64,000 nt of DNA, taken from the IMG/VR virus record IMGVR_UViG_3300037851_000222, positions 1 through 64,000 of that record; one strand, written 5' to 3'. Shown here one piece after another: positions 2,451 to 25,065 of the stretch (the stretch's first letter is position 1; each line of letters begins with the position of its first letter). This stretch comes from a virus. Made by a program: the position numbers and the translations under genes. Below the pieces are notes generated by a model, which had not been told where the DNA came from, searched no databases, and saw only the letters and a program-made list of their open reading frames with translations.

Positions 2451-3371
2451 CTACGATGCCTCTTTCATTTCCGTGTGCAAGGGACGACCTTTGAGGCACC
2501 CTTCACAGAATCCGCACCAGGAATTGAAAATGTTGCATCCGCCGTAATGCGCTGGCAGCATGTCTATTGCGGCCAAGCCGTGGTTGGCGTAGTTGACGAA
2601 GTGCTGCTTGACTTGGGCGCCCAGGAGCGCCGTGTTGCGCTCGGCAGACACCGCGAACGCAGCGGCGTCAGGTGAAATAGGCACGGTCTTCAACTGGTAC
2701 TTGTTGACATCGTTGACCAGATTCTGCGGGTTTTCATTCTTCCGCAGCTTTTGCAGAAATATGTAGCCGACCCCGCCAGGCCACTGCCCGCCCAGCAGAG
2801 ACCGGACGGTGGCCATGGTGTAGGCCGACAACTGCGGGCTGCTGTTCATCATGCCGGTAAGGTTGCCGATATAGGAATCACTGGAAAACTTGTAATCGAG
2901 GATGAACAACAGGCCGGTTGCCCGCTGACGGGCGATCAAGTCGATGGTGCCGCGCCAGTAGATGTTCTCGTGCAGGAGATACTTCGCCGGCTGCTCGACG
3001 GCCGCCACCTCGTACTCTGCCAGGAACCGGGGCCAAAACAGCCTCAAGAACCCTTGCAGATGCAGCGGCAATCGCTCATTGATCCGCGACAGGTCCATCC
3101 CCGGCTCGGCCTCGGCAGCGATCTTCGCCTTCGCAGCCTCCCATGCCTGCTCCCATCGGGTCGCCCCGCGACCAATGACCTCCAGGCCAGAGTGTCCGGC
3201 GCCGCCGAACACCAGGGCCTCGCGGTCCTCGGCCGGGCGTTGACCCAGGATCTTCTCATAACCCCAACGCCGGGGGCAACGCTGGAAGTTCTCCAGTTGT
3301 GAGTGGGAAACGCCAACCTCCTTTTGCAGCATGGCTGCGATGGAGGCGCGAGTGGGAGCGATAAGAGCCAT
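2451..3371 (-). CDS. PD-(D/E)XK nuclease (Cas4/RecB-like exonuclease)
   Basis: SHSQLENFQRCPRRW, GTIDL, ILDYKF, QLSAY and C-terminal Cys cluster; ATG at 3371 with GGAGG upstream. Confidence 0.85.
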   Translation of the reverse strand: MALIAPTRASIAAMLQKEVGVSHSQLENFQRCPRRWGYEKILGQRPAEDREALVFGGAGHSGLEVIGRGATRWEQAWEAAKAKIAAEAEPGMDLSRINERLPLHLQGFLRLFWPRFLAEYEVAAVEQPAKYLLHENIYWRGTIDLIARQRATGLLFILDYKFSSDSYIGNLTGMMNSSPQLSAYTMATVRSLLGGQWPGGVGYIFLQKLRKNENPQNLVNDVNKYQLKTVPISPDAAAFAVSAERNTALLGAQVKQHFVNYANHGLAAIDMLPAHYGGCNIFNSWCGFCEGCLKGRPLHTEMKEAS

Positions 3372-3372
3372 A

Positions 3373-5145
3373 TCAGTTCGATCCTCCGAAGGTCGCGGGG
3401 CGCGGGCTGTGATCACCAGGCAGCTTCAGGCCGTTCTTGATGCGGACGCCGGAATAAACATGAGACCGCTCCCCCGTGGAGGAGCGCGGGCGTATCTTGC
3501 GGATCATCGGGTTGGCAGATCGCAGCTTGATGCCAAACTTGGGCGGACTGCCGGGGTGAACCTCATTCTGTTCAGCCCACAACTTCCACAGCGTGTAAAG
3601 GGCAGTCGTCTCGACTTCGTAGTTTTCACCAAGATCACAGCAGGATTCAAGGAACGAGCCGACGGGGTTGCTCAACTGCGCGAACTCGCGCATGTCGGAC
3701 ATGCCGGCAGACGGCTGCTGGATGCGCCAAGTCTGCCGCAGTTGGTAAAGCCCGTTGAGCGCCCAGTTAAAGATGCCGGCCAACTCGGCTTTCAAGGTGC
3801 TTTCCAAAAAGAAATCCTCACGCCCGAGGAAGGATGTATTGAAGGGGAGGAAAATCAGTCGGGCCATCAAAGCGTTGCTCGCATCAGGTAGGCTGGGCAA
3901 CTCATTCGCCGCTATCACCATCCTCGTCGTCATCCGGGTCCGTAGGGAAGTCTTATGTTTTCGCGGAACAGATCGAGCGTCACCACCGCTGACCATCTTT
4001 ATCGCCTCAACCACCATGCGCGCATCACTATTGGACCCCAAGTGAGCGTCACTGATCAAAGCCACACGCTTACCGATGAAATCCTCCAACCCGAAGGTCT
4101 CGCCCATGAGTGAAAGAGAAGGCGAGCAGGTGTTTTCAGGACCGACGAGGGCCGCGATGATCGCTTGGATTGTCGACTTTCCGCTACGGCTGGCGCCGTA
4201 GCACAACAGCCCTTTGTGGATCCTGTTGTCGGTCGTCAGTAGGTAGCCCATGAACTGCTGCAAGGCCAATACCCGCTCTTGGTCGCCCTCAAACACCTCT
4301 TGGCTGAACTGCAACCATCGGTCGCATCTGGCGCTTGGGTCGAACGCAAACGGCAACTCAATCCGCATGAACAGCCGCGCCGTGTGCGGGAGCAGTTGGT
4401 AAGTCATCGTGTCGTAAATGCCGTTCATCAGCACGCAGAGGTCTTTCGGATCTGGGTCGCCCAACCTGGGGACGCGCCAGACCGAAGCGCAGGCGTCTGA
4501 GGTGTCGTCATACTCCAGCAGCGTGATGCCCTTGAGAGCGTCGAGGGCGCTGGACACACTAGTCGATGTCGGGGAGAACGGGACCACCGCACCCTTCGCG
4601 TCCATGGTCCACGAATCCGACAACCACGGCCACAACATGGCCCGGACGCCACCCTCGGTGGCCCTCTGGTAGCGGCGGCCAGTGAAGAGGTAGAAATCCT
4701 CCTCAAAATACACCAGTGGGCAAACACCGTCGACCTCGGGGAAGGACGTGGCCAGGAACTCCCTGGCGATCTTGTAGTAATCCTTGGGGAGCAGACGTTG
4801 CTGCTTCTGATCCTTCAGGTCGACCGGCCTGCTCTGCACCACCGCCCGGCGGTATTCCTTGGTATCAACCGCGACGTTCAACTTCTTGAAAACGGCGATA
4901 ACCTTGGCTTGCAACTCGCAGGCCAGCGCGGCGTGTGACCGCTGCAAACTGTGCAAACTCGATAAAAAATCCACCTTGAACAAGGTGGATGGGTCGCCCT
5001 GGGCCTCGGCCTTCTTGATCGTCTGTTCCAGACCGTTGGCGAGGTTCGCCCCCTCCATGTACTGGTCGAGATTTGTCTGGCTAAACAACGCCGCAGGCGC
5101 GGCAGGTAGCGGGTTGACGGCTGGAGCGACTTCGCTAGGATTCAC
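3373..5145 (-). CDS. D5/P4-family SF3 helicase (D5_N plus helicase domain)
   Basis: FDPSARCDRWLQF, Walker A GASRSGKST, IKMVSGGD, AANELP; likely GTG start at 5145 after AAGGAG. Confidence 0.9.
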   Translation of the reverse strand: MNPSEVAPAVNPLPAAPAALFSQTNLDQYMEGANLANGLEQTIKKAEAQGDPSTLFKVDFLSSLHSLQRSHAALACELQAKVIAVFKKLNVAVDTKEYRRAVVQSRPVDLKDQKQQRLLPKDYYKIAREFLATSFPEVDGVCPLVYFEEDFYLFTGRRYQRATEGGVRAMLWPWLSDSWTMDAKGAVVPFSPTSTSVSSALDALKGITLLEYDDTSDACASVWRVPRLGDPDPKDLCVLMNGIYDTMTYQLLPHTARLFMRIELPFAFDPSARCDRWLQFSQEVFEGDQERVLALQQFMGYLLTTDNRIHKGLLCYGASRSGKSTIQAIIAALVGPENTCSPSLSLMGETFGLEDFIGKRVALISDAHLGSNSDARMVVEAIKMVSGGDARSVPRKHKTSLRTRMTTRMVIAANELPSLPDASNALMARLIFLPFNTSFLGREDFFLESTLKAELAGIFNWALNGLYQLRQTWRIQQPSAGMSDMREFAQLSNPVGSFLESCCDLGENYEVETTALYTLWKLWAEQNEVHPGSPPKFGIKLRSANPMIRKIRPRSSTGERSHVYSGVRIKNGLKLPGDHSPRPATFGGSN

Positions 5146-5188
5146 ACCCTGCTCCTTCCCATCCCGAGCTAGGGAAGGGGCCGACTCT

Positions 5189-5220
5189 AGACCCCCTGTT
5201 GAACGCAGGGGGTCTTTTTT
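5189..5220 (+). terminator. Intrinsic-terminator-like hairpin
   Basis: AGACCCCCTG-ttgaacg-CAGGGGGTCT followed by T run on + strand, between primase and helicase genes. Confidence 0.6.
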
Positions 5221-5231
5221 CGTTCGGATCA

Positions 5232-6314
5232 CTAACCTACCGGCTCCTTCAACAGGCGCAACAACCAGATCACGTTCGCCTCGGTCATAGTGGGTCCAAA
5301 TTGCCACTCCACTAGGGCTTTGGCCTTGCCGCCGCGCTCGCAACCGAAGCAATACCAAGTGTCCTTGTAGGTGTCCACCGTCAAAGAGCGTTTCGATGAA
5401 CTGAAATGCCGTCTGCAATCGCACAAGATTTCATGGCCGCGGCGTTCAGTGGCCAGCTTCAGGTACTTCGCCACCTGCGCGCACGTCGCCCAGTCGTCCA
5501 GGTGCTCGCTCACCTCGCCAGCGTCGACCTTCGCGGCGTGGCGCACCTTGCGATCAAACCGCACCGCCCGCGCCATCGCCTCAATATATTCCACCTTCAG
5601 CGCCTCGACACCGTGCGCCGCGACCAGGACATCGCTCGGCACCGTGTCCCGGTCTCCGCGCAGCAAGCCAACCCGCTGGATCATCGGGTCGACCAGAGGA
5701 GGCCCAAAGAGCGGTGAGGCGGTGTAATGGGGCTGGACGCAGCGCACCAGGCTGGCGTCGCCGCCGATGCTCCGCAGCCATAGGGTCAGGACCGCATCAC
5801 TGACCGATGTATCCAACAGGTACCAGAGATGCAGGCCCGCCTTCTTCGGGTTCATCCCAGCCGAGGCCGACCACTGCCACACCATCGACACGTCGCGGAG
5901 GCACGGCGGGAGCGCCAGCGCCCGCGCCGCCTCGGCGGCTTGGGCGGGGGCCGTCCGCAGGTCCGGCAGGTCGGCCGGTTGGAGGTGGTCGAGATCGAGG
6001 CAGAACCACCGTCGGGGGGTCGGGAGGAAGGTAGGCCCTTGACCATCCTTCTCCCGCGACCGCCGGAGTGTGTTCGTCCGATCCACGTCCGGTGCCGGCT
6101 CGCCTCTGATCACGCACATATCAGGCTGGGAGGCCAGCCAGTGGACGGCCGCATGCAGATCCCCCATCGTGGGGACCGGCATCTGGCCGACCGCGAACTG
6201 CCAAGCCTTATCATAAGCCCGGCAGATCGGCAGCCCGGAGGCAGGGTCGACCAGCCACCGCTTGGCCAACGACTGGCCCGCAGGGCAGCGAAGAACGGTT
6301 AGGTTCGTTTCCAT
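5232..6314 (-). CDS. AEP-superfamily primase-like protein with C-terminal CHC2-type zinc finger
   Basis: WFCLDLD (DxD), SASAG...GLHLWY motif, C-terminal CDCRRH...WYCFGCERGG; directly upstream of the helicase. Confidence 0.75.
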   Translation of the reverse strand: METNLTVLRCPAGQSLAKRWLVDPASGLPICRAYDKAWQFAVGQMPVPTMGDLHAAVHWLASQPDMCVIRGEPAPDVDRTNTLRRSREKDGQGPTFLPTPRRWFCLDLDHLQPADLPDLRTAPAQAAEAARALALPPCLRDVSMVWQWSASAGMNPKKAGLHLWYLLDTSVSDAVLTLWLRSIGGDASLVRCVQPHYTASPLFGPPLVDPMIQRVGLLRGDRDTVPSDVLVAAHGVEALKVEYIEAMARAVRFDRKVRHAAKVDAGEVSEHLDDWATCAQVAKYLKLATERRGHEILCDCRRHFSSSKRSLTVDTYKDTWYCFGCERGGKAKALVEWQFGPTMTEANVIWLLRLLKEPVG

Positions 6315-8109: not shown

Positions 8110-8529
8110 GTGAGCAAACCCCGTATGAACATCGACGCCTTGAAGCTCTACGGCCGAGTACATCATTCCATAAGTGGTGGTTGTTTGTGGATTGACAACT
8201 GCGAAGTCAATGATGCTGCGATTGCCGAGCAGTTCCGTTGGCGGCGTCAGCCGATCTGGACAGAGTGGGGGGTTCCGCAGGATGGGGAAAAAAGTTTTAC
8301 GATGAATGATCTGTTAAGGTCATTCACTGATGGACAGGAGTTCTTCATTCTTTGTGGGGTTTGCACCAATGATAGGTGTGTTCTTCGCATTGGCGAATGC
8401 GACTATGCCAAGTTCTACGAACCTGGCTGGCATGAGGTCGGTCCTATTGTCATTCATCACGGGTCTTGGATCTATGGGGAGGGTCAGTTGCTTCAGTTCA
8501 TCGGCTGGCGCCTTCGGGTGTTCCCGTGA
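8110..8529 (+). CDS. Hypothetical protein
   Basis: GTG after GAGGTGG; stop overlaps HNH start (GTGA). Confidence 0.55.
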   Translation: MSKPRMNIDALKLYGRVHHSISGGCLWIDNCEVNDAAIAEQFRWRRQPIWTEWGVPQDGEKSFTMNDLLRSFTDGQEFFILCGVCTNDRCVLRIGECDYAKFYEPGWHEVGPIVIHHGSWIYGEGQLLQFIGWRLRVFP

Positions 8530-8927
8530 CCGAGCAATGGCGCCCCGTGGTCGGGCATGAAGGTCTCTACGAGGTGTCCGACCAGGGGCGCGTCCGCACG
8601 GTGGCGCGGTGGCACCGGACTGGGGCGACCCCTCGGCTGCTTCCGGTGAAGACCCTGGCGCAGGCCATCGGCGGCCGGGCCGAGAACTACAAGCGGGTGA
8701 TGCTGCGCGCCCCGACGCGGCACGCCTACGTCCACCACCTCGTGCTGGAGGCGTTCGTCGGCCCGCGCCCGCCTGACATGCAGGTTTGCCATATAAACGA
8801 CGACGGGTTTGACAACCGGCTCGCCAATCTGTATTACGGCAGCCGCGACGACAACGAGATTGACCGATGGATGGCGAAGCGAGTTGGCACCCCGGAGCAT
8901 GCGGAGTTGGAAGATGCACCCTTTTGA
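8526..8927 (+). CDS. NUMOD4-HNH endonuclease
   Basis: EQWRPVVGHEGLYEVSDQGRVR; VHHLVLEAFVGPRP; CHINDDGFDNRLANL. Confidence 0.9.
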   Translation: MTEQWRPVVGHEGLYEVSDQGRVRTVARWHRTGATPRLLPVKTLAQAIGGRAENYKRVMLRAPTRHAYVHHLVLEAFVGPRPPDMQVCHINDDGFDNRLANLYYGSRDDNEIDRWMAKRVGTPEHAELEDAPF

Positions 8928-10158
8928 TCCGCAGACGATCCAACGCGCCCAGATGATCCACGGTGACTGCCTGGACGTGCTGCGGTTGTTGCCACCGGAC
9001 TCCGTCGACGCCATCGTCACCGATCCGCCCTACGGATTGTCGTTCATGGGCAAGAAATGGGACTATGATGTCCCCCGCGTTGATGTTTGGCGCGAGTGCT
9101 TGCGTGTCCTCAAGCCGGGTGGACACCTGCTGGCATTCGCCGGCACGCGGACGCAGCACCGCATGGTGGTGAACATTGAAGACGCCGGGTTTGAGATACG
9201 CGACATGATCGCTTGGGTGTATGGGAGCGGGTTCCCGAAGTCGTTGGACGTGAGCAAGGCGATTGATAAGGAGGCCGGAGCGGAGCGAACCGAGGTAGTT
9301 GGCAAGTCTAATCGTTGTATTGGACCAAGCCAAGCCGGCGACAATGGGATAGGTACTTTCAAGGAATATAACTGGCAAACTAGCAACTTGATTACTGCAC
9401 CCGCCACCGACGCCGCGAAGCAATGGTCAGGCTGGGGCACAGCCCTCAAGCCTGCGATGGAGCCAATCACCGTGGCCCGCAAACCACTGATCGGCACCGT
9501 GGCCGAGAACGTCCTGGCGCATGGCACGGGAGCGTTGAACATTGACGGTTGTCGTGTGCCGACTGACGACAAGCACGGCGGTGGTGCCGAGAAAGAGACA
9601 ACGCCGGAACAGAAAGGCAACGAGGGTTGGACACGCCCTTGGATGGAAAATGAGGCTGCCCGGGAAGCCCACGCGGCTCGTGTGCGTTCCAATGTGGAGC
9701 GCGCCGAGGCGTTGGGTCGCTGGCCCGCCAACCTGATCCACGACGGCAGCGACGAGGTGGTGGGGTTGTTCCCCGTCGCCAACGGCGGCGACAAGCGCGG
9801 GAAGTGCAACGGTGCGCGCCCGAGTGGGTTCGCCAATGTTGGTGCCGATAGTGGCGACGGGTCGCCTTGCGGGCAGACCTACGCGGACGAAGGTTCCGCC
9901 GCCCGGTTCTTCTATTGCGCAAAGGCGAACAAGAAGGATAGGAGCGAATACAATCACCATGAAACGGTCAAACCCACCGACCTGATGCGCTACCTGTGTC
10001 GCCTCGTCACCCCTCCAGGCGGCGTCATCCTCGATCCGTTCACTGGCAGCGGCAGCACCGGCAAGGCGGCGATGCTGGAGAGTTTCCGGTTCTTGGGCAT
10101 TGAGCGCGAGGCCGCGTATGTAGAAATTGCACAGGCCAGGATCGGAGCCGTGTTATGA
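8914..10158 (+). CDS. DNA N4-C/N6-A methyltransferase (beta class)
   Basis: GDCLDVL, VTDPPYG, HETVKPTDLM, ILDPFTGSGSTG. Confidence 0.95.
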   Translation: MHPFDPQTIQRAQMIHGDCLDVLRLLPPDSVDAIVTDPPYGLSFMGKKWDYDVPRVDVWRECLRVLKPGGHLLAFAGTRTQHRMVVNIEDAGFEIRDMIAWVYGSGFPKSLDVSKAIDKEAGAERTEVVGKSNRCIGPSQAGDNGIGTFKEYNWQTSNLITAPATDAAKQWSGWGTALKPAMEPITVARKPLIGTVAENVLAHGTGALNIDGCRVPTDDKHGGGAEKETTPEQKGNEGWTRPWMENEAAREAHAARVRSNVERAEALGRWPANLIHDGSDEVVGLFPVANGGDKRGKCNGARPSGFANVGADSGDGSPCGQTYADEGSAARFFYCAKANKKDRSEYNHHETVKPTDLMRYLCRLVTPPGGVILDPFTGSGSTGKAAMLESFRFLGIEREAAYVEIAQARIGAVL

Positions 10159-10574
10159 CCCGCATTAACATGGGCATCAGGCCACACGAACTAGCGGATG
10201 CGCATTTAATTGCAGAGTACCGTGAGCTTCCCCGCATGGTTCCGTTTGCCCACAAGCGTTGGGCGAAGTATCGCGCTCCTGGTCCGCGCCCTGTGTACCC
10301 GACACTTGGCGCTGGCCACATGGCGTTCTTCCTCCCTTATGGCCCGTTCCTGCGGGGTCGGTTCCTGTCGTTGTGCGGTGAAATGATCGACCGGGGATTC
10401 CGTCCGACCTTGAAGTGGCGCGACTATCCCGAGGAGTTCAACGCGGTCATGCCTGGCTGGGCTGAAGGGATGTTCCGCCCCGAGGTGCAGGCCCGCATTT
10501 GTGATCGTCTGTTGACCATGAAGCGTCTACCGACCTGGACAGGGCGCACGCGCCCGGACTGGAGCCTGCCGTGA
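10155..10574 (+). CDS. denV: Pyrimidine-dimer DNA glycosylase (T4 endonuclease V-like)
   Basis: MTRIN...L.D.HLIAEYRELPR, LGAGHMAFF, EMIDRGF. Confidence 0.9.
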   Translation: MTRINMGIRPHELADAHLIAEYRELPRMVPFAHKRWAKYRAPGPRPVYPTLGAGHMAFFLPYGPFLRGRFLSLCGEMIDRGFRPTLKWRDYPEEFNAVMPGWAEGMFRPEVQARICDRLLTMKRLPTWTGRTRPDWSLP

Positions 10575-11137
10575 GCCATAAACACGTCCCGGGAACTTCC
10601 ATCTCGGTCGGAAAGCCGCGAGGCTCGTTCACCCGTGGGGTGATCAAAGAGGTCAACGCCCGTTTTGCTGACCCGTCAACCCCCCAACCTCGTTGGGTGG
10701 ACTCGTTCAACTACCCCGGCGCTGCCCCCATCGCCTACAACCTACTGGCCTTCAGCCGTGACGGCAACGTCTATTGGCGGGTTGAGCAGGCCGGCGTCGA
10801 CGGTGCGGAGCGGGTGGTTGCCGCTGGCTGGCTGATCTACCGCACCAAGCCAACGCGGGTGTTGGCCGAGGCCCGTGCGGGCGTGCAGACGAAGCATCGC
10901 CGCCACGGCATTTATTCGTGGGTCTTGAAGTCGATCCGCAAGTCGTTCCGTCGACCTATCCTGTCCGACCGGCAGTTGTCAGCGGCGAACTTGGCCCTGT
11001 GGAAGAAGGTCGGGGTCTTGGACGAGGCGACCGGGCGCTACAAGCTCAACCCGCGCCCCTGGTGGATGGAGTCACTGTTTCAGTCGTTCTTGGCCGTTGA
11101 TGGCGAACTACCGATGCCCAAGGAGCCTCGCAAATGA
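10571..11137 (+). CDS. Putative GNAT-like acetyltransferase
   Basis: VQTKHRRHGIYS (acetyl-CoA motif-like) and SDRQLSAANLALWKK. Confidence 0.5.
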   Translation: MSHKHVPGTSISVGKPRGSFTRGVIKEVNARFADPSTPQPRWVDSFNYPGAAPIAYNLLAFSRDGNVYWRVEQAGVDGAERVVAAGWLIYRTKPTRVLAEARAGVQTKHRRHGIYSWVLKSIRKSFRRPILSDRQLSAANLALWKKVGVLDEATGRYKLNPRPWWMESLFQSFLAVDGELPMPKEPRK

Positions 11138-11394
11138 GCGACAACATCATTCAGTTCCCCGGCACCAAGCGCCCCGAGCCTCCGGCCCAGGACGAACAAC
11201 AGCAGGCCACCTTCAACAAGGCGGCCGGCATCGTCGTGGCCATGCCCTTCATCTTGATCGGCATACACGAGGCCGGCGACGGCGCCGACCTGCACACGGT
11301 TTGCAACGGCGACCCGGCGGTGCTGGAGAGGTTCCTGCCCCACCTGCAAGAGAAGGCGGCGGCTGCGATTGCGCGGCATAGGAGCGGCCGATGA
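11134..11394 (+). CDS. Hypothetical protein
   Basis: MSDNIIQFP phage-type N-terminus; AAGGAG upstream; ATGA coupling. Confidence 0.7.
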   Translation: MSDNIIQFPGTKRPEPPAQDEQQQATFNKAAGIVVAMPFILIGIHEAGDGADLHTVCNGDPAVLERFLPHLQEKAAAAIARHRSGR

Positions 11395-11809
11395 CCACCC
11401 GTGAAGACCTCCAATCCATGTACGAACGGATTCACAGCGGCCAGGTCCAGTTGAAGGACCGCCGCGGCCGTCCGCACCAGTACGGCAGCCGCGGCTGGGC
11501 CGGGCCTGGGCGCACAAGCTGCCCCTGGCCGACCGGAACGTGGATGCCGCCGTGTCGTTCGACATGATGGAGCCCTTGCCCGAGGCCGACGTGCCGTTAG
11601 TATTTGGGGAAATGAAACGCATCGCCGCAAAACTGGTTTTGGTGTCCGTTTCCTACATCCCGGCGTCATACGCTGTTGATGGTCGGAACCTGCACGAGAC
11701 GGTCCAGCCGGAAAGCTGGTGGATGGCGCGGATGGAGGCTGCAATCGGATCGCCGGTGTCGGCGGTGCAAATCGGCCGCGTGCGGTGCCTGACTGCGAGG
11801 ATCCCATGA
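11391..11809 (+). pseudogene. Class I SAM methyltransferase remnant (frameshift/deletion near 11500)
   Basis: Start MTTREDLQSMYERIH in one frame; AHKLPLADRNVDAAVSFDMMEPL...NLHETVQPESWW in another; SAM motif I absent. Confidence 0.6.
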
Positions 11810-12435
11810 GCAATACCCCGTGGTGTAATGGTAGCACAACAGGCTTTGATCCTGTTTGTCTGGGTTCGAGTCCCGGCGGGGTAAGTTCGCACCTCTACCA
11901 AGAGTTGTACGACAAGCACGACTATTGCACGGCCGGCATTGGCATCCAGCACATTGCCGAGTGTGAACAGGCGTTGCGGGCACTCCCTCGCGGCCCGGTG
12001 CTGGAGTTGGGCGCCGGCAAAGGCGAGGTGGCCGATTGGTGCCAATCTAACGGTTTCCAGCCTTACTTGGGCGTCGACTGGGTCGAGTCGAGACACCCGC
12101 GCATCATCGGCGGATTCGACATCACCAAGGGCCTGGGCGAGATCGCCAGCGGTACCTATGACTACGTCTGGTCCTTCGACGTATTGGAGCATCTGAAGCC
12201 GGATGACATCGCGCCGTTGTTCGCGCACTGCTGTCGCATCGCCCGGCGTGGGCAGGTGCATGCCGTCTGGACGTGCAGCGATGTCCGGTTGGGCGTCGAG
12301 TTGCACACCTGCCGGAACCATCAAGATTGGTGGAAGGCACAGGCCATGGCCGCCGGGATCCTGCGCGTCGAGGTGCGCCCGTCCGGTCGCAAGGGAAAGT
12401 TTTGGTTGTTCATGGAGACTGCTCATGTCTGCTGA
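11806..12435 (+). CDS. Class I SAM-dependent methyltransferase whose 5' end contains a tRNA gene in frame
   Basis: ATGA coupling at 11806; VLELGAGKG, GVDW, YDYVWSFDVLEHL. Confidence 0.8.
   Translation: MSNTPWCNGSTTGFDPVCLGSSPGGVSSHLYQELYDKHDYCTAGIGIQHIAECEQALRALPRGPVLELGAGKGEVADWCQSNGFQPYLGVDWVESRHPRIIGGFDITKGLGEIASGTYDYVWSFDVLEHLKPDDIAPLFAHCCRIARRGQVHAVWTCSDVRLGVELHTCRNHQDWWKAQAMAAGILRVEVRPSGRKGKFWLFMETAHVC
11814..11884 (+). tRNA. tRNA-Gln(UUG), no encoded CCA
   Basis: Acceptor TACCCCG/CGGGGTA, D arm GTG-TAATGGTAG-CAC, anticodon arm ACAGG-CT TTG AT-CCTGT, T arm CTGGG-TTCGAGT-CCCGG. Confidence 0.9.
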
Positions 12436-12622
12436 AGCACAACACCCTTTCGGTGATCCCGTCAAATGCCGGAACTGCGGCCGGGAGGTGTTTTCCTGGG
12501 CCGCCAAGCACCAGTGGGTCACGAGTCGGTCCAACCTCGGCCCGGCCTGCTCCGACGAGTGCCTGGCCGACCTGCGGGCTGATCACGCGGACCTGTGTCT
12601 GACCGGCGTGGAGGTGGAATGA
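12425..12622 (+). CDS. Small CxxC/CxxxC zinc-finger protein
   Basis: CRNCG...CSDEC; GGAG upstream. Confidence 0.6.
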   Translation: MSAEAQHPFGDPVKCRNCGREVFSWAAKHQWVTSRSNLGPACSDECLADLRADHADLCLTGVEVE

Positions 12623-12966: not shown

Positions 12967-13202
12967 GCAACACCTACGGCGGCGGGGGCTGGTCCGAGTT
13001 CGCCCAAGCGCTAGGCGGCGCGGCCAGAGTGTTCAATGTCTACCAGCAGGCCACCGGCCAAGCGCAGTCCCGTGCAAACGCCGCGCAGCAGGCGCCGCCA
13101 CCGGCAGATGACCCGAACCGGGAAACGAAGATCCTGGCCCGGCTGCGACCGGCGAAGGACGCGGAGTTTCAGGTGATCAGTAGTGTCCGAGGCAGGAGAT
13201 AA
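12963..13202 (+). CDS. Hypothetical protein
   Basis: GTGA overlap with upstream gene; last gene of operon. Confidence 0.5.
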   Translation: MSNTYGGGGWSEFAQALGGAARVFNVYQQATGQAQSRANAAQQAPPPADDPNRETKILARLRPAKDAEFQVISSVRGRR

Positions 13203-13440
13203 CAACCACGTTGGGCGCTGTGACTTTGTAGACCACCCGGTGTTCTTTGTTGAGCCTACGGCTGCAATAACCCTTCAAGTCCCAACACAGATGCTCAAAT
13301 TGCTGTGTTGGTAGAAAAGGGGCTGTTTCCAGTGTGGCAAGTATCTCATCAAGTTTCTTGACCAAGTCTTGCCGCTTTCGGCGGATGTATTTAACATCTT
13401 TCTCTGCCTTCGGCTCCATCTTGATGGTGAAACTACCCAT
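13177..13440 (-). CDS. yoeB: Txe/YoeB family toxin (mRNA interferase)
   Basis: FEHLCWDLKGYCSRRLNKEHRVVYKV...ISCLGHY. Confidence 0.9.
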   Translation of the reverse strand: MGSFTIKMEPKAEKDVKYIRRKRQDLVKKLDEILATLETAPFLPTQQFEHLCWDLKGYCSRRLNKEHRVVYKVTAPNVVVISCLGHY

Positions 13441-13678
13441 GGAGCAGTCGTCGCCAGTCGACTTTGCGCGCCTTGCTGTTTCGCTCGGAGGCCCGAATGG
13501 CGCGAACGTAGGCCGGCTTGGACAGGATATACAGTGTTTCCTGCATGGAGGACCAGGCTTCGCCACTGATGATCACGGCCTGCTTCCGCCCCCGGCAAAT
13601 CTTGACGGGTCGCGCCGGCTGGTCTTCAATGACCGCCGCGACAACCCTGCTGATCTGATCGTCGGTAATGTGGCGCAT
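13433..13678 (-). CDS. yefM: Phd/YefM family antitoxin
   Basis: PVKICRGRKQAVIISGEAWSSMQETLYILSKP; directly upstream of and overlapping the toxin. Confidence 0.85.
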   Translation of the reverse strand: MRHITDDQISRVVAAVIEDQPARPVKICRGRKQAVIISGEAWSSMQETLYILSKPAYVRAIRASERNSKARKVDWRRLLHG

Positions 13679-13813: not shown

Positions 13814-15319
13814 TCATAGACAACCCAACCCCCGATGCGTTTCAGGTGCGGTCCTCCGGCGCGGCGGTAAGGGTTGAAGCGTCAACTCACTTTTGCTGCG
13901 GGTCATCGCAACATACTTCAGATTCTTTTCCTGTTGCAGGCTTTCCGCCGTTGAATCGCGGCGCACGAGCGGCATCATTTCCGGCCCCAGGATGATCACC
14001 CGTTCGGCCTCCAGGCCTTTGGCCCGGTGAACGGATGAGAAGACAACCCCTTGTCCGTTGGTTTCGTCGGAGAAGATGCGGTTCAGACGCTCCACAACCT
14101 CGGACGTGTCTTCGGTGTCGCAGGCGTCTATGACGGCGGTGATGGTCTCGACCTTGTCGGATGCTGCCTCGGCGGCCCTCTCGTTGTCCTGGGCCAGGGC
14201 CTTTTCCCGCTCCCGGCGCTCCCATTTCTTGAGCTTGACGATCAGGCCGGGGATCGTTGGCGCCTGTTGCCGTTGGACCAGGCGCGACAGTTCGCCGCCA
14301 AGGTCTTTTCCCCGCACACAGGCTTTCCGGCCGGCGCGGATCAGTTCCAGGGCCGCCGGCATCAATGGGGCGTTCAGACGGCACAAAACGAGGTCGCCCG
14401 GCTGGGCGCCGCCCAAGGTCGCCCCCCGGTCGCGCTCCTGGCGGTGGCGGACTATGCCGTCAGCCGCGCCATCGGCGGCGGTGATGATGGTAGCCCCACC
14501 CTCTCCGATGACCTGTTGCGCCAGGGCGACGTGCGACGTGGGGCAGCGATAGGACACAGGCAGGGATAGCTCGTCCAGTTGGAAGCGGACGCGCATGTTG
14601 TGCATCGCGGCGGGGTCTGCTCCTCGGAAGCCGTACACGGACTGGTACCGATCTCCTACTGCTATAAGAATACCATCTTGCTTGAGGGTGCGCCCGATCA
14701 AGGCCTGTTGCGCCTCGTTCATGTCCTGGGCCTCATCAATCAAGACGAAGTCGAACCGGGCCACAGGCACAGCAGGGTAGCGGACGGGGAAATATATCAT
14801 TTCATCATAGGAAATGGTCGAGTGCATATCGAGACAGGCGTTGACCACCTTTCCGACCAGGGGCAGGGACAGGTCCGGGTCTTCCAGGGTCTTCCCGCAC
14901 CGCCGCAGGCCGTTGAGAACGGCAGCCTCGTTGTGCGGATCCAGCACCAAGCCCATGGCCACCGGTACAGCCGCCATCAGGTCGCCGTGCGCCCCCATCG
15001 GCGCCACCGCCCGGACGATGTTGCGCAGCTTGTTGTCGTCCAGCACAACACCCGGCGAGGCGCGCTTGAGGGCGGCGAAGCCATGGCTATGCAGGGTCGA
15101 GCATGCCACGCCTGGCGGCAGCTTGCGGGAGAACTCGGCCACGATGTCGCGGTTGAACGCGGCGCAAAAGATCGAGGCGCGGGGGAAGTCGCGCCTGATC
15201 ACCTCACAAATCAGCCGGAGGGTCGTCGTCTTCCCCGCGCCCGCGCACGCCTGCACCAGCGTAGGCCGGCGCAGGCGAACGTTGTTAAGGATCGCCTCTT
15301 GGTAGGGGCTGGGGGTCAT
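13814..15319 (-). CDS. UvrD/Rep-like SF1 helicase
   Basis: ACAGAGKTT, IDEAQD, VGDRYQSVYGFRGA, SYRCP, SSVHRAKGLE, YVAMTRSK. Confidence 0.95.
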   Translation of the reverse strand: MTPSPYQEAILNNVRLRRPTLVQACAGAGKTTTLRLICEVIRRDFPRASIFCAAFNRDIVAEFSRKLPPGVACSTLHSHGFAALKRASPGVVLDDNKLRNIVRAVAPMGAHGDLMAAVPVAMGLVLDPHNEAAVLNGLRRCGKTLEDPDLSLPLVGKVVNACLDMHSTISYDEMIYFPVRYPAVPVARFDFVLIDEAQDMNEAQQALIGRTLKQDGILIAVGDRYQSVYGFRGADPAAMHNMRVRFQLDELSLPVSYRCPTSHVALAQQVIGEGGATIITAADGAADGIVRHRQERDRGATLGGAQPGDLVLCRLNAPLMPAALELIRAGRKACVRGKDLGGELSRLVQRQQAPTIPGLIVKLKKWERREREKALAQDNERAAEAASDKVETITAVIDACDTEDTSEVVERLNRIFSDETNGQGVVFSSVHRAKGLEAERVIILGPEMMPLVRRDSTAESLQQEKNLKYVAMTRSKSELTLQPLPPRRRTAPETHRGLGCL

Positions 15320-24717: not shown

Positions 24718-25065
24718 TCAGGCGATCTTCAGCTTGCGCAGCAGGGCTTTGCCCGGTTTGGTCAGGAACAGGATGCCGCCAGCCGCCAGGGCCAGGAACC
24801 ACGGCTTCTTGACGGTGTCCATCAGGGCACCCATGCCCGGCAGCATGTCACCCGCAGTGCCTTGGTAGGCCGGCGCGCCGACGTAGCCGCCGATGCCAGG
24901 CATGAAGCCGGTGACGGGGGCCGCCACGACGGCCTGCTTGGTGGCCGAGGCGTTCAGGGGCCGCGGGGCCGGCATCTCCGGGGCACCGGCGGCGCGGGCC
25001 GCTTGGGTGGTCACGGTGGTCGGCATGGGGGTCGTGAAGAAGGCGTCGGCTTGGTTGCCCAGCAT
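24718..25065 (-). CDS. Small protein with C-terminal TM anchor and basic tail
   Basis: AGGAG SD; KKPWFLALAAGGILFLTKPGK. Confidence 0.7.
   Translation of the reverse strand: MLGNQADAFFTTPMPTTVTTQAARAAGAPEMPAPRPLNASATKQAVVAAPVTGFMPGIGGYVGAPAYQGTAGDMLPGMGALMDTVKKPWFLALAAGGILFLTKPGKALLRKLKIA

Follow-up and report, generated by a model that had tools for sequence, protein, structure and literature searches.

In this study, we analysed a locus of an uncultivated virus at which a complete tRNA-Gln(UUG) gene lies in frame within the 5′ end of a methyltransferase reading frame. An intact tRNA, an intact enzyme core and strong start signals ahead of the tRNA are found together there, and no other good start is available to the enzyme. 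We propose, as a reading to which we give about even chances, that the tRNA was inserted in frame after codon 3 of the methyltransferase gene, that this gene is still read through, and that tRNA maturation and translation compete for one transcript. The evidence base is one sequence from a metagenome assembly: our window, the whole stretch of DNA analysed here, comprises the first 64 kb of the linear, 94,993-base IMG/VR record IMGVR_UViG_3300037851_000222, which has a GC content of 63% and an estimated completeness of 63% (CheckV). Judged by tRNA similarity, the host of the virus possibly belongs to the PVC group.

The locus sits in a tightly packed plus-strand operon. Upstream of it, on the same strand, lie genes for an HNH homing endonuclease (8526–8927), an N6/N4 DNA methylase (8914–10158) and a DenV-like pyrimidine-dimer glycosylase (10155–10574), followed directly before the locus by two genes with no assigned function (10571–11137 and 11134–11394). 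Downstream, also on the plus strand, come a small zinc-ribbon protein (12425–12622) and two more genes with no assigned function. Most successive genes of the operon are joined by a 4-nt overlap (ATGA or GTGA), and most carry a clear Shine-Dalgarno (SD) sequence. Near the locus, we found no promoter or terminator that would set the tRNA apart from its neighbours.

The tRNA-Gln spans 71 nt on the plus strand (11814–11884) and carries the anticodon UUG, a U1–A72 pair and the discriminator base A, with no encoded CCA. The first-pass annotation had proposed a complete tRNA at this position, which is borne out by an ARAGORN call and by the Rfam covariance model RF00005, against which the sequence scores 64.6 bits (cut-off 29) over model positions 1–71, i.e. 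the full model. It is the only RNA family match that Rfam returned in the window; a second ARAGORN call, a tRNA-Ala at 24934–25012, was discarded for lack of Rfam support. All cloverleaf pairs are standard (21 of 21), the cloverleaf is the minimum-energy fold in its context, and the consensus bases of the D and T loops are present in the Rfam alignment. For comparison, we aligned the viral copy with seven bacterial tRNA-Gln genes of similar sequence, taken from MAGs of Lentisphaeria, Victivallales and Verrucomicrobiota. Among the 7 distinct sequences of this alignment, both sides of the pair have changed at three pairs; the viral copy shows a change on both sides in the T stem and has a G–C pair where the bacterial copies have U–A or A–U. 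In slid controls, pairing fell to 38–48%. All seven bacterial genes have G73 and an encoded CCA, whereas the viral copy has A73 and lacks the CCA; about 10% of its sequence differs from the closest bacterial copies that we found. Its exact sequence is absent from the viral contig and genome contig collections searched, and a search of a phage DNA database returned only tRNA matches, at 80% identity. No CCA-adding enzyme was found in the 95-kb record. Since CAA makes up 32% of the glutamine codons of the virus, a tRNA with a UUG anticodon has a plausible use. On the strength of its sequence and pairing, we regard the tRNA-Gln at 11814–11884 as real and structurally intact, with processing and aminoacylation as predicted properties.

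The reading frame around it (11806–12435, plus strand) comprises 209 codons and a stop and consists of an ATG, two further codons, the tRNA-coded stretch and then a class I SAM methyltransferase, the tRNA occupying part of codon 3 through codon 27. No internal stop interrupts it before the TGA at 12433–12435, so that the stop-free passage through the tRNA that had been read from the sequence at first inspection holds, as does the coupling of its start to the upstream frame: the ATG at 11806–11808 overlaps the TGA at 11807–11809 in an ATGA (11806–11809). The same type of coupling recurs at 10155, 10571, 11134, 11391, 12619 and 12963. In addition, an SD-like GAGGA (11797–11801, plus strand) lies 4 nt before the ATG. 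To put these signals in proportion, we called a crude set of 117 genes from codon-usage scores. An SD of at least 4 bases precedes the candidate start in 82% of these crude gene calls, compared with 13% of 1,275 internal start-like codons, and the chosen starts are ATG in 98 cases, GTG in 16 and TTG in 3.

The public gene call at this locus (P0001, 176 aa) begins instead after the tRNA, at the TTG of codon 34 (11905–11907, plus strand), and aligns to residues 34–209 of the full frame. No SD precedes this TTG at a usable distance; upstream of it stands only an AAGAG that directly abuts it. The first-pass annotation held it to be the only in-frame start between the tRNA and motif I; the codon is indeed there, and two further canonical starts, TTG 11974 and GTG 11998, the latter encoding the first residue of motif I itself, have to be added. 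None of the three has an SD. Between the end of the tRNA (11884) and the codon of Tyr31 (11896), no ATG, GTG or TTG occurs. Start signals alone, as far as they can be judged from the sequence, favour ATG 11806 over the TTG by orders of magnitude, with the limit that the signals at ATG 11806 would look identical if they were merely ancestral.

The frame encodes a predicted class I SAM-dependent methyltransferase, in line with the assignment made at first inspection from its SAM motif. It matches Pfam Methyltransf_23 (PF13489) with 39.1 bits (cut-off 27) and PF08241 (Methyltransf_11) with 28.3 bits (cut-off 21.2), and alignments and Pfam place the SAM-binding motif I at residues 65–73 (11998–12024, plus strand), with glycines G69, G71 and G73. 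The AlphaFold2 model has a mean pLDDT of 89.4, and Foldseek finds as best match 3e23, a SAM-bound methyltransferase (E 1e-9), which indicates a generic class I methyltransferase fold. For this enzyme, PHROGs gave no match and NCBIfam none above its cut-off. In the model, residues 1–27, among them the 24 tRNA-coded residues, are predicted to be disordered, and the first enzyme helix (codons 28–36, 11887–11913, plus strand), which contains Tyr31 (codon TAC, 11896–11898), follows directly after the tRNA. The conserved core of the enzyme thus begins 3 nt past the tRNA, and the mean pLDDT per block of 10 residues climbs from 40 for residues 1–10 to 91 for residues 31–40. A start at codon 34 would split helix 28–36 mid-way.

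Homologs speak in the same direction. A phmmer search of 1.84 billion representative proteins returned 272 of them. An alignment of 32 sequences shows Tyr31, the motif I glycines, D125, H129, H167 and W176 to be invariant, and all seven invariant non-Met residues of the family are kept in the viral enzyme. Among 120 homologs of 140–260 aa, 109 have a Tyr in the column of Tyr31 and 8 have a gap, that is, Tyr in 109 of the 112 with a residue there; in every homolog with an equivalent of Tyr31, the start lies 1–61 residues (median 12) upstream of it. The closest homologs (P0002, P0003, P0004 and P0005) sit on short metagenome contigs, of 736 nt for P0002 and 986 nt for P0003. Seven residues precede the Tyr in the two closest, which share 46% and 43% identity, and residues 30–33 of the viral protein, encoded before the TTG, agree with the closest homologs to the same degree as the remainder of the protein. 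According to these alignments, the TTG-started public call of 176 aa lacks a residue that is kept in nearly all homologs. Because the stretch from the tRNA to Tyr31 contains no start codon and the later starts have no SD, a complete enzyme needs the frame through the tRNA: by its sequence, the enzyme including Tyr31 would be obtainable only by starting at 11806 and translating through the tRNA. The nesting of the tRNA within the methyltransferase frame, the central point of the first-pass annotation, therefore stands, with Tyr31 and the first half of helix 1 upstream of the TTG, and with SD and ATGA overlap at the ATG and neither of them at the TTG.

Whether methyltransferase homologs carry the N-terminal extension was a check suggested at first inspection. 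Dozens of the local phmmer alignments reach query residues 27–31, up to the 3′ end of the tRNA (codon 27), and end there. Seven database 'proteins' (P0029, P0073, P0117, P0127, P0142, P0145 and P0148) do match the extension, and only residues 2–31; we rejected them as homologs, since each is an artefactual ORF called across a tRNA-Gln gene, in some cases across tandem tRNAs, and yields the same peptide. A tRNA near the methyltransferase was seen in 0 of 31 loci with distant homologs, which speaks against a methyltransferase family that is regularly associated with tRNAs and argues that the tRNA is a derived addition.

Directly upstream of the nested frame lies a broken paralog of the methyltransferase (11391–11809, plus strand). 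Its N-terminal motif, with the equivalent Tyr, is found in the frame of 11391, which stops at 11565–11567, and its C-terminal half in the frame of 11540/11564, which ends with the TGA at 11807–11809; the coding score changes frame near 11500, and three-frame translations show that SAM motif I is missing. The C-terminal half shares 30% identity with the downstream enzyme (tblastn E 7e-6; E 0.003 in another search), and the paralog matches a PHROG methyltransferase with E 7e-4. Since the broken paralog represents the same enzyme and is attached by an ATGA joint, the locus probably once comprised two tandem methyltransferase genes, and ATG 11806 would then be the natural start of the second. With the tRNA taken out, three codons plus three or four would leave 6–7 residues before Tyr31, compared with 7 in the two closest homologs, a count that fits a clean insertion of about 72 nt after codon 3. 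Of the coding sequence on the two sides of the tRNA, the downstream part is clear from its homologs; the upstream part, an ATG and two codons that offer nothing to align with homologs, is supported by the SD, the ATGA overlap and this residue count. No target-site duplication marking an insertion was found.

We looked for relatives of the virus that carry the same arrangement and found none in the phage, viral-contig and metagenome-contig searches. The protein gave one match, at 28%, in a phage database; the enzyme alignment reached at most 32% identity in viral contigs, where three neighbouring proteins had no match, and identities in metagenome contigs were at most 37%. A lone sequence cannot show that an arrangement has been kept by selection.

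How much weight the open frame can bear was estimated as follows. Four stop triplets lie inside the tRNA, three in one phase and one in another, and the enzyme phase alone is open. This open phase is generic to tRNA-Gln genes, so that openness alone is nothing special, signals no adaptation and is worth a factor of about 3. An SD-preceded ATG occurs with a frequency of 0.0026 per position in the genome, or about 0.026 for the ten in-phase codons upstream; with a further factor of 1/3 for being in phase with the enzyme, the whole layout has a chance of roughly 1%. It is therefore hardly a chance juxtaposition and looks like a tRNA placed within an existing gene, at its 5′ end. An insertion at random would preserve the downstream frame in 1/3 of cases and place the tRNA in its open phase in 1/3, about 1 in 9 together, which makes the intact frame about 9 times likelier if read-through matters. 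A coincidence of 1 in 9 is, however, non-negligible where in-frame cases are the ones picked out. From a sceptical prior of 10–30% for the nested reading, the frame argument leads to roughly 50–80%; we lowered this to the even balance stated at the outset, because the case is a singleton and carries no information on expression. As for the enzyme body, random frames in this virus average about 36 codons, and 176 or more open codons together with the invariant residues have a chance below 1% in random sequence of the same GC (both estimated from base composition). With the invariant residues kept and 176 codons open, the enzyme does not appear to be an old pseudogene.

A young one is a different matter, and that the methyltransferase was recently killed is the alternative we take most seriously, at roughly one chance in four in our judgement. 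The insertion of the tRNA, or a deletion fusing the tRNA to the enzyme body, would have inactivated the gene, the frame would be open for lack of time, and the product would be inactive or not made in useful amounts. The neighbouring paralog, already broken by a frame change and the loss of motif I, fits this account well and counts against read-through, since by its sequence it indicates that this locus can lose methyltransferase genes. RNase P cleavage would part the start from the body and, if efficient, could leave very little full-length mRNA, which likewise counts against read-through; the searches returned no relatives that show conservation, and the in-frame outcome of about 1 in 9 needs no selection. 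On the other side, all invariant family residues and all 209 codons are intact, and with its start signals intact as well, ribosomes should load on uncut transcripts. The divergence of about 10%, the loss of the CCA and the compensated stem change speak against a very recent capture from a host, and a move within the virus is possible.

Somewhat less probable still, at about one chance in five, is an ordinary intergenic tRNA in a 95-nt spacer after the upstream stop, followed by an enzyme that starts at TTG 11905 and functions despite lacking Tyr31 and the initial half of helix 1; that the frame is open as far back as ATG 11806 would then be a leftover or a coincidence. tRNAs tightly packed between phage genes are the rule, the public call P0001 of 176 aa has this form, the open phase is what tRNA-Gln genes generally offer, and 8 of 120 homologs have no residue in the Tyr31 column. 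A TTG can serve as a start; it is also a common Leu codon in the virus (375 uses). In this virus, however, TTG accounts for about 3% of starts and SD-less starts for about 18%, and this TTG has no usable SD. The shortened protein would lose the Tyr kept in 109 of 112 homologs and begin within helix 28–36, residues 30–33 before the TTG would still match the closest homologs, and the in-phase, open SD-ATG at 11806, with its chance of about 1%, would go unexplained. Finally, that the tRNA is a non-functional relic or a tRNA-like element, serving only as coding sequence or RNA structure, e.g. as an RNase P-dependent decay signal, appears very improbable: the discriminator A and missing CCA, where seven bacterial genes have G73 and CCA, and the failure to find a CCA-adding enzyme in the 95-kb record would suit it, but most bacteria possess such an enzyme, and the full-length score of 64.6 bits, standard pairs in all stems, the compensated T-stem change, the consensus bases in the D and T loops and the use that a CAA share of 32% of Gln codons gives the UUG anticodon all stand against it.

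We therefore return to the in-frame insertion with continued read-through, for which the following course of events can be envisaged. The tRNA-Gln(UUG) gene would have been inserted in the second of two tandem paralogs, leaving the original ribosome-binding site and ATG 11806 in place. The 71-nt tRNA would be read as about 24 extra residues, giving a disordered N-terminal tail of 27 residues in all, with the enzyme fold right after it. Ribosomes arriving from the end of the upstream frame, or loading at the GAGGA, would start at 11806 and unwind the tRNA while translating, which would yield the 209-residue enzyme. RNase P and 3′ processing release tRNAs from transcripts. Where the cloverleaf forms, RNase P would cut at 11813/11814, 8 nt after the A of the ATG, and a 3′ nuclease cut near 11884/11885 would free the tRNA. 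The first cut would part the ribosome-binding site and the AUG from the coding body, and the body would be left with no start site. As this cut would be irreversible and both products would stem from the same transcript, the competition would be fought per transcript, and initiation would be ended for good.

An intron-like excision of the tRNA with rejoining of the flanks does not reconcile the two products, since removal of 71 nt breaks the frame; excision one base further 3′ would restore it, and nothing supports such a cut. No RNA ligase or RtcB was found in the record.

That the arrangement serves a purpose, such as the mutually exclusive switch or mRNA-decay timer suggested at first inspection, is a further step, and we hold it only tentatively, at clearly less confidence than the insertion with read-through itself. 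Selection may maintain the 71 bases for two uses at once, namely a functional tRNA-Gln and codons 3–27 of the methyltransferase. The RNase P cut would then act as an irreversible 5′ off-switch, and enzyme output would be set by the race of the first ribosomes against tRNA maturation.

The co-transcription of tRNAs with protein genes is well known from mixed tRNA-mRNA operons such as thrU-tyrU-glyT-thrT-tufB and secG-leuU of E. coli and the tRNA region of T4, in which the tRNA is freed by RNase P and 3′ nucleases. The viral locus resembles them in that its tRNA would be transcribed together with protein genes, no promoter or terminator of its own being seen. In these operons, however, every gene has a start of its own and the tRNA occupies the space between coding regions, whereas here no usable start separates the tRNA from the conserved core.

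Closer parallels are tRNAs within coding sequences. In the mitochondrion of the isopod Armadillidium vulgare, a tRNA-Lys lies inside cox1 (as cited in PMC8124441). Such cases in animal mitochondria share with the viral locus a whole tRNA in direct orientation, and one transcript cannot give both products intact. They differ in their setting of extreme compaction and reduced tRNAs, as opposed to a canonical 71-nt cloverleaf in a 95-kb virus with decaying DNA next door. As for bacteria, many Alphaproteobacteria are predicted, on bioinformatic grounds only, to carry selC (tRNA-Sec) nested in a C-terminal extension of selB (Mukai 2021, Int J Mol Sci 22:4605, PMC8124441). For this arrangement, Mukai proposes 'alternative expression', in which tRNA folding and processing stand against the full-length protein, and calls it the first such report in bacteria (PMC8124441). 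Both loci hold an entire same-strand tRNA in an ORF, where it is read as an appended tail, in both a stop/start overlap with the neighbouring gene backs the annotation, and both are bioinformatic predictions only. In selB-selC, the tRNA is C-terminal and its cleavage would create a non-stop mRNA, whereas the viral tRNA lies 8 nt after the AUG and its cleavage would remove the ribosome-binding site and the start. Moreover, tRNA and protein are functional partners in selB-selC and the nesting is kept across many genera, while the viral pair has no evident link and is represented by one sequence; the former is bacterial, the present case viral. Our literature search turned up nothing specific on a phage tRNA inside a coding sequence. 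The concept as such is not new, 'alternative expression' having been published for selC in selB (PMC8124441). New relative to selB-selC are the N-terminal position, 8 nt after the AUG, and the carrier, a methyltransferase of a high-GC virus. If the dual use is true, the locus would represent an off-switch that is driven by processing and acts at the start of a gene, for which selB-selC and the mitochondrial cases offer no equivalent.

Beyond this locus, the finding touches on how such genes come to be recorded. Because annotation pipelines mask tRNAs at the outset and allow no coding sequence to cross them, nested cases are systematically mis-called, here as a public call of 176 residues. Should the read-through product turn out not to be real, the locus would be a snapshot of a tRNA acquisition that destroyed a phage gene, beside a paralog already in decay. 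If, instead, the product does exist, the very few known cases of a tRNA nested in a protein gene would be joined by a viral one at the N-terminus, and the locus would offer a simple system in which ribosome and RNase P compete on one RNA.

Directly upstream of the class I SAM methyltransferase frame that carries tRNA-Gln(UUG) in frame (11806–12435, tRNA at 11814–11884), a tandem paralog of this enzyme, now decayed, was found at 11391–11809. It is split into two frames, one holding the N-terminal motif and the other the C-terminal half, which are linked by an ATGA at 11564–11567, and the glycine-rich SAM motif I has been deleted from it. Around the tRNA itself, an imperfect inverted repeat of 19 nt (79% complementary) was observed, whose arms at 11752–11770 and 11925–11943 flank the SD site, the start, tRNA-Gln and the first helix codons of the methyltransferase. 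In the predicted fold, the acceptor stem is additionally lengthened by a 4-bp helix, GAGC/GUUC, pairing 11808–11811 with 11885–11888. Both the repeat and this short helix may be chance products of GC-rich sequence.

The operon that contains the tRNA also encodes, within 8526–10574, an HNH homing endonuclease (NUMOD4 and HNH_3), an N6/N4 DNA methylase whose start it overlaps and, after these, a DenV-like pyrimidine-dimer glycosylase. Convergent to the operon, a YoeB-like toxin and Phd/YefM-like antitoxin pair resides on the minus strand at 13180–13678, and a UvrD-like helicase comes next at 13817–15319. A replication module, likewise on the minus strand (2454–6314), comprises a PD-(D/E)XK nuclease, a protein bearing a zinc ribbon of the DnaG type, and a D5-like primase-helicase (DUF5906/D5_N), for which no close relatives were found in IMG/VR.

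ARAGORN additionally called a tRNA-Ala(GGC) of 79 nt at 24934–25012, with a GC content of 79.7% and numerous G–U pairs. Since Rfam gave no match over this interval at the gathering threshold, the call is probably a false positive.

Over the 117 crude gene calls of the whole virus record, 32% of Gln codons are CAA, which is high for a genome of 63% GC and fits with the virus having a tRNA-Gln with UUG anticodon. The only genomes found to share the acceptor, D and T arms of the viral tRNA-Gln are Lentisphaeria, Victivallales and Verrucomicrobiota MAGs (contigs L034–L040). Their tRNA genes have G73 and encode the CCA, both absent from the viral gene. Because matching arms are confined to these MAGs, the tRNA sequence provides a clue that the host of the virus may be a member of the PVC group.
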